Below are positions 19,413 through 25,797 of a stretch of 64,000 nt of DNA, piece after piece. This DNA is from an uncultured Alphaproteobacteria bacterium (GTDB taxonomy: Bacteria; Pseudomonadota; Alphaproteobacteria; RF32; CAG-239): contig CALXZL010000002.1 of NCBI GenBank assembly GCA_944393215.1, positions 485 through 64,484 of the forward strand, read 5' to 3'. How positions within the stretch are numbered: the stretch's first letter is position 1; each line of letters opens with the position of its first letter. The notes beneath the pieces were generated by a model that did no database searches, was not told where the DNA came from, and saw nothing but the letters and a program-made list of their open reading frames with translations. The position numbers and the translations under genes are program-made.

Positions 19413-19988
19413 TTAATTTCCGATACCGGAAAACCCCATAAAAGCCATAGAAAGCAACCCAGCCGTAATTAAAGCGATAGGCGCTCCCTGCACTGCTTTA
19501 GGCAAATTAACCAAAGCCAATCTTTCACGCAAACCGGCAAATAAAACAATCGCCAAGGTAAATCCTAAAGCATTTGCCAAAGCAAAACAAACGGCATGAG
19601 CCAAATCAAAATCCTTCTGAATAACCAAGAGAGACACCCCCAATACCGTGCAATTTGTAGTAATAAGCGGCAAAAAGATTCCCAAAGCCTGATATAAAAG
19701 CGGAGACATCTTCTTTAAGATAATTTCCACCATCTGTACCAACGAAGCAATCACCAAAATAAATGTCACCGTAATCATAAAGTTCAAATTATATGGCAAC
19801 AAAACGGCATGATAAATAATATAAGTTACAATAGTTGAGAGTACCATAACAAAAGTAACGGCTCCGCCCATCCCCGCAGCAGTAGAGATTTTTTTGGAGA
19901 CGCCTAAAAAAGGACAAATTCCCAAAAACTGAGACAGCACGATATTATTAACAAAAATAGCGGTAATAAAAATCATCAAATAACTCAT
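19413..19988 (-). CDS. rnfA: Rnf electron transport complex subunit A
   Basis: [28 protein letters not shown]. Confidence 0.96.
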
Positions 19989-20584
19989 TTATCCGTACCT
20001 CTCAACTGATTAAACACTACAATCAAACCAGCCAAAGCCAGGAAAGCTCCGGGCGGCATAATAAACATGAGCATTGTCTCTGCCCCTTCTTGAACAAAAC
20101 TAAAACCGAAAGCAGAACCAGAACCAAGAATTTCACGTACCAGCCCCAACAATGTCAAAGCAATGGTAAAGCCTAACCCCATCCCTAAAGCATCGAGTGC
20201 TGATTGAAAAACATTATTTTTAGAAGCAAAAGCTTCGGCTCTGCCCAAAATCAGGCAATTAACCACAATCAGCGGAATAAATATACCCAAAGCGGCATGC
20301 AACGTTGGTAAATAAGCCGACATAAGCAAATCAACAACCGTAACAAATGTTGCGGCAATAACAATAAAACAAGGTATACGCACTTGATTGGGAATAAGAT
20401 TTTTGACCAAAGAAATCGCACAATTAGAGAGTAAAAGAACAAAGAGAGTGGCAGCACCCATCCCCAAACCGTTCAATGCCGAAGTTGTCACACCTAAAGT
20501 CGGACACATACCTAAGAGCATAACAAAGATTGGATTTTCTTTAACAATTCCGCGAGTAAAATTTTCAAAACCAGTTTTATTCAT
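19985..20584 (-). CDS. rnfE: Rnf subunit E
   Basis: [50 protein letters not shown]. Confidence 0.96.
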
Positions 20585-21176
20585 GTTTATTTCCCTTGCT
20601 GAGTTTATTCAAGGCTTTATAACCGCGTTTAATGGCATCCACCACGGCACGAGAACTAATGGTCGCAGCGGTAACAGCATCAATTTCGCCGCCGTCTTGT
20701 TTAACTTTAAACACCTGCTTTCCCGGATTCATACCGTGAAATTGATCACTGAAGCGACTTTCGGTAATTTTTGTTCCCAGACCGGGAGTTTCCTTCTGAT
20801 CAATAATTTTATATTTATTAATTGTTCCGTCCACCGTCAGACCGAGCATCATCTCGATTTTGCCGCCGAACCCGTTTTTGCTGTATGTTTTAATCGCCAC
20901 GGAAGTAATTTTTCCGTTTTCATCTCTTGCCGGAAACAAATCTACCTTTTCTCGACCGTGAGCAAGAGAAATTTGATGACGCTCTTCAAAAGGATTATTT
21001 GCAAAATCGCCATAAACCACATCACGAATAGCTTCCAATTCCCGAAGATTTTTAGCTTTTTGTATAGGTTCTTTGGTCAGTTGATAAACACTGCTCAATA
21101 TCAAAGCAGAAAACACGGCAACAAGAACAAGAGCGCAAGTCATGGTGAAAGCGGTTGATTTCATAGGTTTAGACAT
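20577..21176 (-). CDS. rnfG: Rnf subunit G (FMN-bearing)
   Basis: N-terminal [22 protein letters not shown] flavinylation motif. Confidence 0.95.
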
Positions 21177-22178
21177 TTATTTTCTCCCTGTTCCGTAGAC
21201 GCGTGGATAATAAAACTTATCAATCAGAGGAACGAAAGCGTTCATAATCAAAATAGCAAAAGAAACACCTTCGGGATAAGCACTGTAAAAACGAATAATA
21301 AACGTAAGCAAACCGCAACCGATAGCAAAAATAATTTTTCCTTTAACCGACATGGGAGACGTTGCATAATCCGTAGCCATAAAAATAGCGCCGAGCATTA
21401 AACCTCCTGACAAAAGATGAGTAAGCGGTTCATAGCGCACATCATCGGTCAAGAGCCACATAGCGGAAGTCAAAATAAGCATGGTTGCCAAATAATAAAA
21501 AGGCACATGCCAAGTAATAACACGGCGCAATAACAGATAAGCTCCGCCGACAAGTAAAGCCAAAGCAGAAACTTCTCCTAACGAGCCGCCGGTATAACCG
21601 ACAAACATCTGCAAATAATTAGGAATATCATGAACGGCTTCCACTTCGTGAGTTAAAGAAGTAGCTGAAGAAGATGCATCTAAGTGTTTGAGAATACCCA
21701 AAGTTGTTGCGGCTGTTTGCACATCGGTATTAAAAAAATCATGCCAGTTTGGTTTCATCCACATGGTCATTTGAACCGGAAAAGAAATAAAAAGGAACAC
21801 ACGACCGACCAAAGCCGGATTAAAAATATTCTTACCTAATCCGCCAAAAGCCATTTTTGCAACCACAATAGCCATAAAAGCCCCGATAAGCACCATCCAA
21901 AGCGGCATTGTCGCCGGAAGATTAAATGCCAGCAACATACCGGTAATAATGGCGGAATAATTATTTATGGTAGATTTTTGTTTCAAAAGATAATGCACAA
22001 ATAAATATTCCCACATAACACAAGCGGCAACAGAAGTTAAAATAACCGTCAAAGCGTTCAACCCGAAGAAAAAAACGGCAACAACCGCAGCCGGCATTAA
22101 AGCAATAACCACATCACGCATCAAACGTTTTGTATCCAGCGGAGAAAACATATGAGGAGCAGTAGCAACTTTCAACAT
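21177..22178 (-). CDS. rnfD: Rnf subunit D
   Basis: APH, FGGLGKNIFNPA, QTAATTL, GSLGEVS, GAIFMATD, YPEGVSFAILIMN; true ATG at 22178. Confidence 0.96.
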   Translation of the reverse strand: MLKVATAPHMFSPLDTKRLMRDVVIALMPAAVVAVFFFGLNALTVILTSVAACVMWEYLFVHYLLKQKSTINNYSAIITGMLLAFNLPATMPLWMVLIGAFMAIVVAKMAFGGLGKNIFNPALVGRVFLFISFPVQMTMWMKPNWHDFFNTDVQTAATTLGILKHLDASSSATSLTHEVEAVHDIPNYLQMFVGYTGGSLGEVSALALLVGGAYLLLRRVITWHVPFYYLATMLILTSAMWLLTDDVRYEPLTHLLSGGLMLGAIFMATDYATSPMSVKGKIIFAIGCGLLTFIIRFYSAYPEGVSFAILIMNAFVPLIDKFYYPRVYGTGRK

Positions 22179-24337: not shown

Positions 24338-24364
24338 AATATAAAAACTCTATTTTCTGCGGAT

Positions 24365-24781
24365 TTAATTTTTATCGACAATCTTAAAATGTAACTTCTT
24401 TTTCCAAAAATTCTTTTTCAAAGATAATCCAAAATAATATGGAATCAAGACAATTATACTACATATCCCACTTGATAATTCCGTAAGACCGCCGAGCAGA
24501 GCGGCAAATAATACCATAAGAACAAGCATAAGCGGAAAAATATATCCCCAAAAAAGAGCCAAAAAACCTTCGTTGAGAGAAATCGCTACTTTTACATGAT
24601 CGTAACATTGAAATGTATGACCTTTTTCCACCGGAATATCAATAATTCGAGAAGAAGTTTCATGCATTTGGCACGAGTTTTTCAACACACAGAGCTTGCA
24701 GGCAGATTCTGTTTTGATTTCAGCCCGAACGACATTGGGCAAAACTTCAATAATCTGTGCATCATGAACAATTTCCGTCAT
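24365..24781 (-). CDS. rseC: RseC/MucC (SoxR-reducing system) family membrane protein
   Basis: SACKLCVLKNSC Cys cluster, then YIFPL and two TM helices; directly upstream of rnfB. Confidence 0.85.
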   Translation of the reverse strand: MTEIVHDAQIIEVLPNVVRAEIKTESACKLCVLKNSCQMHETSSRIIDIPVEKGHTFQCYDHVKVAISLNEGFLALFWGYIFPLMLVLMVLFAALLGGLTELSSGICSIIVLIPYYFGLSLKKNFWKKKLHFKIVDKN

Positions 24782-25797
24782 TTTTGATTCTCCAATAACA
24801 ACTTAGCGGCAGAAGAATAAACAATTTCGGCATTTTGAACATCACCCCCGACAAACAAAATAACCGGCAACTGCAATTTTTCGGCAAAATCAAGCCCTGT
24901 TTTTTCACCCATTGCCATAATAGCCGTTGCATAAGCATCTGCAAGCATACAATTCGGAGCAAACACGCTGACCGACAAAAGATGATGCTTAACGGGAGCC
25001 CCTGTTTTCGGATTAATTGTATGAGCAAACTTTTGTCCGTTTATATAATAGAAATTACGATAATTTCCCGAGGTTGCCACAGCCATATTACTAATGGTAA
25101 CAGCAAATGAATTTCGATAATCAGATTCGCTCGGCGCGGCTATCCCGATATTCCACCCCTGCTCTTTGATATTACGAGAACCTGCGGCATAAATTTCACC
25201 GCCGATATCAATCAAAAAGTTTTGATATCCGTGTTCATGCAAAGCTTTGGCAACCAGATCAACGGCATATCCTTTGGCAATGGCAGAAAGATTAAGATTG
25301 AGATTGGTACTTTTCTTCATCACGTAAGAATGCGGCAAGAGTACAATTTTATTAAATCCGACCGAAGACAACGTCTTTTTGATTTGCGCATCATCGGGAA
25401 CTTTATGTTCTTTATTAACGCCAAATCCCCAAAGTTCAATCAGAGGACCAACGGTCGGATCAAAAAAACCGTCGCTTTGTATATAAATTTTTTGAGATGC
25501 TTCTAAAATTTGATATAAATCCGCCGAAACCTGTATATTTTTAAAAGAAGCAGACTGATTAAACAAATTAACTTCCGATTTTGGTTCAAAAACCGAAAGA
25601 TGAGCATTAACCTTATCAAACTGTGTATCGACCATGGATGCAAAATCTTTTATAGGCGCATCTGTACGCACTTTTATCACATAATAAGTACCAAAAACAT
25701 ATCCTCTCAAAACCTGATAATTTTGCTTTTGTTGAGAAACAAATAAAATCCCGATAAATAAGGCAATAAAAAACAAAAAAATACTAAAAAGTTTCAT
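24778..25797 (-). CDS. apbE: FAD:protein FMN transferase
   Basis: DPTVGPLIELWGFG, NLSAIAKGYAVD, DIGGEI, ATSGNYRNF, ADAYATA; ATGA overlap with rseC. Confidence 0.95.
   Translation of the reverse strand: MKLFSIFLFFIALFIGILFVSQQKQNYQVLRGYVFGTYYVIKVRTDAPIKDFASMVDTQFDKVNAHLSVFEPKSEVNLFNQSASFKNIQVSADLYQILEASQKIYIQSDGFFDPTVGPLIELWGFGVNKEHKVPDDAQIKKTLSSVGFNKIVLLPHSYVMKKSTNLNLNLSAIAKGYAVDLVAKALHEHGYQNFLIDIGGEIYAAGSRNIKEQGWNIGIAAPSESDYRNSFAVTISNMAVATSGNYRNFYYINGQKFAHTINPKTGAPVKHHLLSVSVFAPNCMLADAYATAIMAMGEKTGLDFAEKLQLPVILFVGGDVQNAEIVYSSAAKLLLENQK

Follow-up and report, generated by a model that had tools for sequence, protein, structure and literature searches.

An ancient, Bacteroidia-related origin is probable for an apbE-headed Rnf operon in gut Alphaproteobacteria

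Alphaproteobacteria are mostly respirers, and the classical alphaproteobacterial Rnf complex serves nitrogen fixation. An rnf operon with the gene order typical of another phylum, carried by an uncultured alphaproteobacterium of the animal gut, raises the question of where such a complex came from and what it does in its host. The operon lies in a 64,000-nucleotide stretch (the window) that corresponds to positions 485-64484 of contig C2 of a 1.72-Mb metagenome-assembled genome (MAG) in 27 contigs. A preliminary description of this DNA had proposed that the whole ion-pumping ferredoxin:NAD+ module, with its flavin transferase, came from Bacteroidales and supports fermentative energy conservation. 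We evaluated this proposal with profile searches, genome samples and phylogenies, and the best explanation of the locus as a whole is an intact Rnf operon with an energy-conserving function and an ancient, Bacteroidia-related origin, a reading to which we give a probability of roughly 0.7.

Eight contiguous open reading frames (ORFs) on the minus strand at window positions 19413-25797 were identified with Pfam and NCBIfam profiles as apbE-rseC-rnfB-C-D-G-E-A:

24778..25797, minus strand: apbE, first gene of the operon, FAD:protein FMN (flavin mononucleotide) transferase of 339 aa (amino acids; PF02424, 285 bits)
24365..24781, minus strand: rseC, RseC/MucC-family membrane protein of 138 aa (PF04246, 66.4 bits)
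23498..24337, minus strand: rnfB, Fe-S subunit and ferredoxin entry site, 279 aa (TIGR01944, 91.5 bits, cut-off 68.7)
22183..23505, minus strand: rnfC, NADH/FMN-binding subunit, 440 aa (TIGR01945, 537 bits, model positions 3-435 of 435)
21177..22178, minus strand: rnfD, membrane subunit with a predicted covalent FMN, 333 aa (TIGR01946, 369 bits)
20577..21176, minus strand: rnfG, periplasmic FMN subunit, 199 aa (TIGR01947, 151 bits; PF04205)
19985..20584, minus strand: rnfE, membrane subunit, 199 aa (TIGR01948, 256.5 bits, cut-off 213.4)
19413..19988, minus strand: rnfA, membrane subunit and last gene of the operon, 191 aa (TIGR01943, 269.6 bits, cut-off 229.3)

All six Rnf subunits exceed the curated cut-offs of their models (TIGR01943, TIGR01944, TIGR01945, TIGR01946, TIGR01947 and TIGR01948), and ApbE matches NF007774 with E = 4.7e-60, under the equivalog cut-off of that model. 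The junctions from apbE to rnfA measure -4, +27, -8, +4, 0, -8 and -4 nt, in agreement with the overlapping or near-zero junctions first described. RnfB contains PF04060 and Fer4 domains and scores 312 bits on NF005504. RnfC combines the NADH/FMN module (RnfC_N, Complex1_51K, SLBB) with two [4Fe-4S] motifs (Fer4) and, as had been noted, is a short form that spans the full TIGR01945 model and has no long C-terminal extension. The plausible start of rnfD is the ATG at 22178; a longer TTG-initiated frame reaching 22319 begins inside rnfC, and its 47 additional residues fall outside the family models. RseC carries an N-terminal SACxxCxxxxxC motif that is also found in Bacteroidota RseC proteins encoded upstream of rnfB. 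The locus is almost certainly an intact operon, presumably co-transcribed, that encodes a complete Rnf complex (RnfBCDGEA).

This assignment was compared with the known relatives of the complex. RnfC/D/G/E/A are homologous to NqrA/B/C/D/E of the Na+-translocating NADH:quinone oxidoreductase (Na+-NQR, nqrABCDEF), and the order CDGEA equals ABCDE of the latter (PMC4014512); flavinylation of Na+-NQR likewise depends on ApbE. An identity as Na+-NQR was nevertheless rejected because RnfB is present, NqrF is absent and every subunit scores far higher on Rnf models, with Nqr models two to ten times lower. The classical Rnf/Rsx systems (Rhodobacter capsulatus rnfABCDGE(H), Azotobacter vinelandii 8AHX, E. 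coli rsx) share the six homologous subunits and cofactors and occur in Proteobacteria, but in these rnfA stands first and rnfB second and the proteins belong to another, well-separated clade. Many gammaproteobacterial RnfC proteins have long C-terminal extensions (representatives of 700-1200 aa), unlike the RnfC of the window. Clostridial and thermotogal Rnf (rnfCDGEAB; structures 7ZC6 and 9ERI) provides the best solved-structure matches (7ZC6 RnfD, E = 9.5e-88; RnfG, E = 3.9e-18) and is a ferredoxin:NAD+ ion pump of fermenters (PMC9588780), a function which for the window is predicted from its genes. However, rnfB stands last in that operon and first here, and the window operon adds rseC and apbE. 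The B-C-D-G-E-A order, the rseC gene directly upstream and proteins that branch next to Bacteroidia Rnf together place the locus in the Bacteroidota type.

The host is an alphaproteobacterium, as had been assumed from the outset. The MAG (100% complete, 0.6% contamination) has 36-40% GC on all 27 contigs, about 38% overall and uniform across the window; no 16S rRNA gene was found in these contigs. It encodes GcrA (PF07750, 137 bits), which among 14 named control genomes was detected in Caulobacter and, oddly, in Sulfolobus. The RnfC proteins of members of the same family, 70% identical to that of the window, are labelled '[Alphaproteobacteria bacterium]' at NCBI (MBE6445226.1). The genome shares its class with about 200 sampled families, and its RpoB is 63-71% identical to those of about 275 same-class genomes. 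The sequence was detected in gut metagenomes of chickens, birds and other sources in at least five studies. Integrity of the contig at 19400 and 25800, which the preliminary description had marked for checking, is well documented. Logan contig X4 (18405-22264) spans the 19.4-kb border and contigs X2 (24110-26097) and X10 (25353-28012) span the 25.8-kb border; these contigs come from different studies. The operon sits 19-26 kb into a 247-kb contig, and the operon of a congener is flanked by the same neighbours, a CDP-alcohol phosphatidyltransferase gene and a family-4 uracil-DNA glycosylase gene, in three assemblies of separate source (contigs of 312, 180 and 53 kb); congeners and family members share the flanking genes on contigs of 180-312 kb. 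A chimeric contig was rejected on the basis of these independent assemblies and conserved flanks.

To describe the distribution of the operon, two genome samples were used, one of the order (120 genomes, nearly all of one family) and one of the class (301 genomes, 254 genera); numbers with G, L and P denote sampled genomes, loci and cluster representatives, and G000 is the window genome. An RnfC ortholog was present in about 75 of the 120 genomes at 61-86% identity, representing 16 of 19 genera. In a separate homology search with the window RnfC, the matches listed (at least 120) all belonged to the family, with identities of 68% and above, and gave no lead to a donor. The identical apbE-rseC-rnfBCDGEA layout occurs in family members of other genera (L042, L046, L047) and in G001, the sole sampled member of the sister family, where rnfB is split into two overlapping frames. 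Across the class, any RnfC was found in only 10 of 301 genomes. Four of these belong to four other families and encode RnfC proteins 55% identical to that of the window (G227, G175, G122, G279); G227, G122 and G279 show the same layout, apbE-rseC-rnfBCD onward. In G175, rseC-rnfBCDG runs to the contig end and apbE was not called separately; ahead of rseC stands an 844-aa frame (L054, 1529-4063) whose C-terminal third is an ApbE domain (match G175:C159:3035-4051), and which may be an ApbE fusion protein. A further genome, G338, has the canonical rnfABCDGE order with an RnfC 43% identical. Several families thus share the operon as an old trait that has in places been remodelled since, and it is no insertion peculiar to this chromosome, which corrects the view of an acquisition specific to this genome. 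Departures from the common layout were observed in the family of the window: G058 (L048) and G071 (L049) carry apbE-rnfCDGEA with no rseC or rnfB alongside, in G106 (L051) an OmpA-like gene comes after an rnfCDGEA set that forms a long branch (46% identity), and G084 (L050) has an RnfC-like gene beside an ATP-grasp gene with no other rnf genes nearby.

The nearest relatives outside Alphaproteobacteria were identified with an exhaustive HMMER scan of 1.84 billion cluster representatives drawn from about 15 billion proteins. None of these 50%-identity representatives was more than 51% identical to the window RnfC, and the identities of the matches ran on without a break through 39-48%. A single scan of GTDB species genomes that started from a neighbouring representative yielded 80 named loci, nearly all from Bacteroidota (Bacteroidales, Marinilabiliales, Flavobacteriales and genomes labelled Sphingobacteriia). 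The full rseC-rnfBCDGEA order is present in about 50 of the 80, which supports the original assignment to this operon type; in the others rseC was undetected or the contig ends inside the operon, and rseC lies upstream of rnfB in about 53. Identities to these loci are modest: 58-71% for RnfA, 54-69% for RnfE, 42-55% for RnfC, 42-54% for RnfD, 41-55% for RnfB, 27-46% for RnfG and 21-36% for RseC. A sample of 251 genomes from the GTDB phylum Bacteroidota contained two further operon kinds, a Chlorobia-like BCDGEA (RnfC 42-45% identical) and a CDGEA(B) type. The Rnf of Bacteroides and Prevotella (B. fragilis, B. thetaiotaomicron and Prevotella; PMC4715464, PMC12718326, PMC10542786) resembles that of the window in the order of its six subunits, in rseC directly before rnfB, in a short RnfC, in the RnfG motif DA[IV]TAAT and in tree position, with Bacteroidia as the sister group, but differs in its low identity (27-71% per subunit) and in that the alphaproteobacterial clade lies outside the sampled Bacteroidia crown.

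Phylogenies agree with this picture. The RnfC tree (116 rows, LG+C20, quick setting) contains an alphaproteobacterial clade with a support of 93, a sister group of Bacteroidia with 83, and a joint clade with 98 by the SH-aLRT (Shimodaira-Hasegawa-like approximate likelihood ratio test). Chlorobia-like, CDGEAB and canonical proteobacterial clades and a second divergent Bacteroidales group (P0131, L062, L100) fall outside, and the canonical proteobacterial clade (L036, L037 and the long-RnfC representatives) is set apart with 99 SH-aLRT. The window Rnf does not branch with canonical rnfABCDGE proteins of Alphaproteobacteria or other Proteobacteria, a placement that had been named beforehand as refuting the proposal. 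A first FastTree topology, which put the alphaproteobacterial sequences in two places, was discarded when a site-heterogeneous model reunited them. P0131 was similarly dropped as a candidate sister of the alphaproteobacterial clade; with named sequences added it fell outside that clade and Bacteroidia and represents the second divergent Bacteroidales Rnf group. The concatenated RnfB+C+D+G+E+A alignment (1629 columns, 45 taxa; LG+C20+F+G4 with posterior mean site frequencies (PMSF), ultrafast bootstrap/SH-aLRT) gave the alphaproteobacterial clade 100/99, its union with Bacteroidia 99/97 and Bacteroidia without it 90/77; inside the clade, the sister family f2 joins (f161 + f1) with 92/90. By the approximately unbiased (AU) test, forcing the alphaproteobacterial sequences together with all non-Flavobacteriales Bacteroidia was not rejected (p = 0.15), and forcing them with crown Bacteroidales (Bacteroidaceae, Prevotellaceae, Tannerellaceae, Dysgonomonadaceae, Muribaculaceae, Paludibacter) was rejected (p = 0.0004, delta lnL 88.6). 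By these alignments the alphaproteobacterial BCDGEA Rnf appears as one monophyletic clade, to which belong the family of the window, the sister family and no fewer than four further alphaproteobacterial families with small genomes. Its closest named relatives are the class Bacteroidia, and it does not come from crown gut Bacteroidales.

Two groups of sequences in these trees deserve separate record. The rseC-rnfBCDGEA loci of a MAG labelled Desulfobacteraceae (L091, OZ245369.1) and of one labelled Pseudobutyrivibrio (L128) are nested inside Bacteroidales in the concatenated tree, L091 as sister to an uncultured Bacteroidales bacterium (100/99); this placement points either to an error of binning or labelling or to a recent transfer from Bacteroidales to other lineages. 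Some MAGs of Porphyromonadaceae, Muribaculaceae and Bacteroides (L062, L094, L100, L116, P0131) have a markedly divergent RnfC, grouped outside the main Bacteroidia in the RnfC tree with the high-GC-looking P0145, P0162, P0224 and P0225. The concatenated tree places L094 and L116 back in Bacteroidales, with long branches, and the divergent RnfC may reflect fast evolution or a recombinant gene.

The general rule on gene order from which the proposal had started, ABCDGE in most Proteobacteria and BCDGEA in Chlorobi and Bacteroidetes, agrees with the literature (PMC4014512). Its use as a diagnostic of the donor does not hold: rnfBCDGEA is also reported in Caldithrix (PMC5317091), in a gammaproteobacterial Solemya symbiont (PMC4287430) and tentatively in Treponema pallidum (PMC4436053), and therefore gene order cannot by itself name a donor. 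An origin from Bacteroidales proper likewise fails: the alphaproteobacterial proteins branch as a deep clade of their own, separate from the Flavobacteriales, Marinilabiliales and Bacteroidales sampled (90/77), a grouping with crown Bacteroidales is rejected by the AU test, and RnfC identity reaches only about 55%.

The RnfG site DAVTAAT aligns (phmmer) with its TAAT onto TGAT of the solved Clostridium tetanomorphum structure (7ZC6_G), and the RnfD site DVQTAAT aligns onto TTAT of C. tetanomorphum (7ZC6_D) and Acetobacterium woodii (9ERI_D), so that both tetrads coincide with the FMN-threonine sites of the solved Rnf complexes of these two species. Predicted FMN-threonine sites in RnfG and RnfD are thus accompanied by an ApbE in the same operon. 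The TAAT motifs are indeed present in both subunits, where clostridial Rnf has TTAT (RnfD) and TGAT (RnfG), but TAAT itself is not unusual. Across the sites compared, the only fixed residues are the final Thr and the Ala before it. DA[IV]TAAT is the commonest RnfG form among those Bacteroidia loci for which a motif could be identified and also characterizes most of the alphaproteobacterial clade (the Chlorobia-like RnfG site is DELTAAT); judged from these alignments, the TAAT of RnfG is a clade character and no oddity. In RnfD, TAAT is restricted to the close lineage of the window, the congener having TGAT, and recurs sporadically in Bacteroidaceae and Prevotellaceae.

As previously described, ApbE has a hydrophobic membrane anchor and no lipobox: its N-terminus, MKLFSIFLFFIALFIGILFVSQQ, contains no Cys, and the nine rnf-linked ApbE proteins of relatives have a hydrophobic N-terminus likewise without a lipobox. 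ApbE is rnf-linked in relatives of families f1, f2, f4, f109 and f161 and evolves fast: the congener protein is 46% identical, and identity across the family is 40%. A tree of 39 ApbE rows (careful setting), which drew on two taxon pools only, united 11 of 12 rnf-linked alphaproteobacterial ApbEs in one clade (96/89). The sister of this clade, with weak support (81/77), is a group of Bacteroidota ApbEs, with other alphaproteobacterial ApbEs outside. Among the 80 Bacteroidota loci, none had apbE within 8 kb of rnf; a homolog occurs elsewhere in the genome in Maribellus, Xylanibacter and the Desulfobacteraceae-labelled MAG, whereas here apbE is the first gene of the operon. The part of the proposal that the module was transferred with its flavin transferase consequently remains unproven, given this lack of linkage and the weak ApbE tree. 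Two loci of the Bacteroidota phylum sample, L181 (6627-7640; Chlorobia-like rseC-rnfBCDGEA) and L183 (6781-7779; CDGEA-type), have an ApbE-like gene downstream of rnfA, 27-28% identical to the window ApbE. This is the opposite end of the operon, and the linkage of apbE and rnf therefore arose independently there.

To place the complex in the metabolism of its host, we examined the genome for its likely partners. It encodes a NifJ-type pyruvate:ferredoxin oxidoreductase (PFOR) on C8 (TIGR02176, 1811 bits), a monomeric group B [FeFe] hydrogenase at C4:92634-94070 on the plus strand (TIGR04105, 520 bits, cut-off 450) and, inside the window at 33998-35422 on the minus strand, the HydG maturase (TIGR03955, 935 bits). 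In tblastn searches of the 27-contig MAG, E. coli NuoCD, NuoE, NuoG, NuoH, NuoL, CydAB, CyoAB and FrdAB had no matches; NuoF matched only RnfC, NuoI gave one short Fe-S match, and NuoM and NuoN gave weak antiporter-like matches at C5:99.8-102.2 kb that may represent an Mrp-type antiporter. The genome thus appears to lack any classical respiratory chain. Since no complex I, cytochrome bd, heme-copper oxidase or fumarate reductase was found in these searches, Rnf is probably the only redox-driven ion pump of the genome. An F-type ATP synthase is present, with a c subunit gene located by tblastn next to atpB (C14:~11584-11805, plus strand) that encodes MEPMAYIGAGMCALSMMLAAWGVSQVWTTLISTVGRNPQVKKDVDIYGWAGFAAVEAIALYALVIALVMLTGQ. 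This subunit (GRNPQ, then AAVEAIALYALV, and AAVEAIALY) contains the Gln, Glu and Tyr of the ion site and no Ser/Thr after the Glu. In c-rings it is the Ser/Thr that completes Na+ coordination, and the motif hints at an H+-type ring. Bacteroides and Prevotella similarly combine Rnf with PFOR and group B [FeFe] hydrogenase as partners (PMC12578642). Bacteroides, however, also has NQR, Nuo and fumarate reductase, which the window host appears to lack, and the host differs from both genera in the missing Na+ motif of its c subunit.

These components suggest the following working model. On the periplasmic side, ApbE would attach FMN to the conserved threonine residues of both RnfG and RnfD; RseC is a small Cys-motif membrane protein that goes with this type of rnf operon. 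PFOR would reduce ferredoxin and RnfB accept the electrons, which would then travel along the Fe-S and FMN cofactors of RnfB, A/E, G and D, reach the FMN bound by RnfC and finally reduce NAD+. This exergonic transfer would expel H+ or Na+, and the F-type ATP synthase would use the gradient, with the group B hydrogenase as a second outlet that vents surplus reduced ferredoxin. Known systems offer parallels: the rnf genes of B. fragilis encode a Na+-dependent ferredoxin:NAD+ oxidoreductase (PMC4715464), Prevotella Rnf balances the ferredoxin and NAD cofactors in fermentation (PMC10542786), Bacteroides requires Rnf in the gut (PMC12718326) and group B hydrogenases re-oxidise PFOR-reduced ferredoxin (PMC12578642). 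The proposed role in fermentative energy conservation fits the gene content, with PFOR, hydrogenase and ATP synthase present and no respiratory complexes found, and stands as an inference only.

Several explanations of the origin have to be weighed against each other. That the locus is an artefact, either a chimeric contig or Bacteroidota contamination in the bin, has practically no probability. The missing 16S rRNA gene and the fragmented MAG leave room for it, and the Desulfobacteraceae- and Pseudobutyrivibrio-labelled MAGs with Bacteroidales-nested operons indicate that mis-binning does happen; against it, contigs from different studies cross both borders, the operon is embedded in a 247-kb contig of uniform GC, and congeners and family members keep the same neighbours. 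That gut Bacteroidales recently passed the whole module to this chromosome by horizontal transfer is very improbable and, for the crown gut families, refuted by the AU test. The shared operon order, the common RnfG motif, the same gut habitat and the position of Bacteroidia as nearest named relatives would all be expected from such an event, but the best Bacteroidota identities are modest (RnfC 55%, RnfD 54%, RnfG 46%, RseC 36%), cluster representatives reach at most 51%, the operon is found in other families as well as in 16 of the 19 genera of this one, its GC matches the genome and apbE is unlinked to rnf in Bacteroidota. A different direction or source is rather unlikely, though it has more in its favour: BCDGEA Rnf may have been ancestral in old anaerobic alphaproteobacteria and passed to Bacteroidia, or a third, unsampled lineage may have supplied both. 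The alphaproteobacterial clade is sister to Bacteroidia and not nested within it, many nearby cluster representatives have no taxonomic label, and Chlorobia-like sequences do not group specifically with Bacteroidia in the RnfC-only tree, so that vertical descent within the phylum Bacteroidota is not demonstrated. On the other side, a position of the alphaproteobacterial sequences inside Bacteroidia after Flavobacteriales is not rejected (p = 0.15), and the rnf-linked ApbE leans toward Bacteroidota and away from other alphaproteobacterial ApbEs. We infer that the transfer ran from a Bacteroidia-related lineage to Alphaproteobacteria because this type occurs in every sampled Bacteroidia order and in only about six of about 200 sampled alphaproteobacterial families, and that it is ancient because of the identity of about 55% and the conservation across the family. 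By this comparison of sequences, the somewhat favoured history is that an anaerobic ancestor among the Alphaproteobacteria received the operon once, in ancient times, from a donor related to Bacteroidia. The donor would have been a stem-Bacteroidia-like or related lineage, apbE would have joined the front of the operon within the alphaproteobacterial line, and inheritance would since have been mostly vertical with some losses and replacements.

The direction in which the complex operates also has an alternative. Rnf could run mainly in reverse, spending the ion gradient to reduce ferredoxin with NADH, for instance for the [FeFe] hydrogenase or for ferredoxin-dependent biosynthesis, and conserving no energy. 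Rnf is reversible, and this mode has been proposed for hydrogenase supply in Bacteroides (PMC12578642) and for nitrogen fixers (PMC9588780); the genome has a ferredoxin-dependent group B hydrogenase, and NADH needs some route of re-oxidation without respiration. We regard reverse operation as unlikely, as PFOR already supplies reduced ferredoxin, no other pump was found to build the gradient save ATP hydrolysis by the F-ATPase, and the forward direction balances cofactors in Prevotella (PMC10542786). Forward, energy-conserving operation is likely on the gene content of the host. The following points count against this combined reading of ancient origin and forward function. The direction of transfer is not proven because of the sister position (90/77), the outgroups of the concatenated tree came from the Bacteroidota phylum only, and many cluster representatives from other phyla lack taxonomic placement. 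RpoB identity ranks G175 first and G227 fourth of about 275 genomes, but the range (63-71%) is too flat to establish the carrier families as one clade of a species tree. The absence of respiratory complexes is that seen with E. coli queries against the 27-contig MAG. The coupling ion could be either H+ or Na+ because the c subunit lacks the Na+ Ser/Thr whereas the B. fragilis Rnf, the nearest relative that has been characterised, is Na+-dependent, and in this uncultured organism both direction and ion are predictions from sequence. Transcription has weak evidence, a faint signal in a gut metatranscriptome that consists of a few 150-270-nt contigs with 0-5 mismatches in rnfE/G, rnfD, rseC/rnfB and apbE.

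Features at the two ends of the operon were also recorded:

19380..19409, no strand assigned: hairpin with a 12-bp stem and A and T runs on either side, from a terminator scan
25798..25911, minus strand: upstream region with promoter-like hexamers TTGATT-16-TATACT at 25911..25884, from a consensus scan only, which by itself does not demonstrate function

The hairpin is a probable bidirectional terminator for rnfA and the convergent gene at 18548-19396; the X4 strain has a 2-nt deletion at 19406, in the loop/stem region. Two genes on the plus strand (25875-28216) are divergent from apbE. The first encodes the CDP-alcohol phosphatidyltransferase, with archaetidylinositol/phosphatidylinositol phosphate synthase as best models (E = 7e-17), and the second a 534-aa DsbD-like membrane thiol-disulfide reductase. 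Enzymes resembling phosphatidylinositol phosphate synthase are uncommon in Alphaproteobacteria. Beyond 25940, differences that look synonymous are dense in strains X4 and X10 (82-104 per 2.4-2.7 kb), and the rnf genes differ far less between strains (about 0.4-1.3%, e.g. 31 differences in 4.6 kb).

The Rnf machine, its accessory genes and its gene order are already known, and the Prokaryotic Genome Annotation Pipeline (PGAP) names these MAG proteins RsxC and the like. Hydrogenases and PFOR have been described in gut alphaproteobacterial MAGs (Azospirillum or Acetobacter sp. CAG bins) without mention of Rnf (PMC4967309), and in the literature searched we found no paper that treats RF32, Rnf and Alphaproteobacteria together. 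A multi-family alphaproteobacterial Rnf clade that is sister to Bacteroidia, has apbE in front and occurs in hosts apparently without a respiratory chain appears to be unreported in that literature. Knowledge of the Rnf mechanism is unchanged; the locus contributes a well-supported example of a complete energy-conserving complex that moved between phyla long ago, and it shows that the donor cannot be narrowed down to Bacteroidales from gene order.

A broader reading, which we regard as speculative and on balance doubtful, is that a whole Bacteroidia-style ferredoxin toolkit, comprising rseC-rnfBCDGEA, ApbE, group B [FeFe] hydrogenase with its maturases, and PFOR, was acquired once, by an ancestor common to several gut-dwelling or anaerobic alphaproteobacterial families with small genomes. 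The carrier families G000, G175 and G227 have in common both an Rnf of about 55% identity and a group B hydrogenase of 54-55%; the hydrogenase is 46-47% identical in Bacteroidota, where 2 of 101 sampled genomes had it at E <= 1e-80, and 44-48% in four other alphaproteobacterial genomes. If this were true, a respiratory lineage would have turned into obligate fermenters, providing a natural experiment in the wholesale replacement of bioenergetics in Alphaproteobacteria, and earlier work has considered these lineages as models of how the mitochondrial ancestor lived anaerobically (PMC4967309). For the organisms themselves, the finding means that uncultured gut alphaproteobacteria, which apparently have no respiratory chain, would depend on a Bacteroidia-type Rnf together with PFOR and a group B hydrogenase, and Rnf would be the piece that allows such a cell to make an ion gradient.

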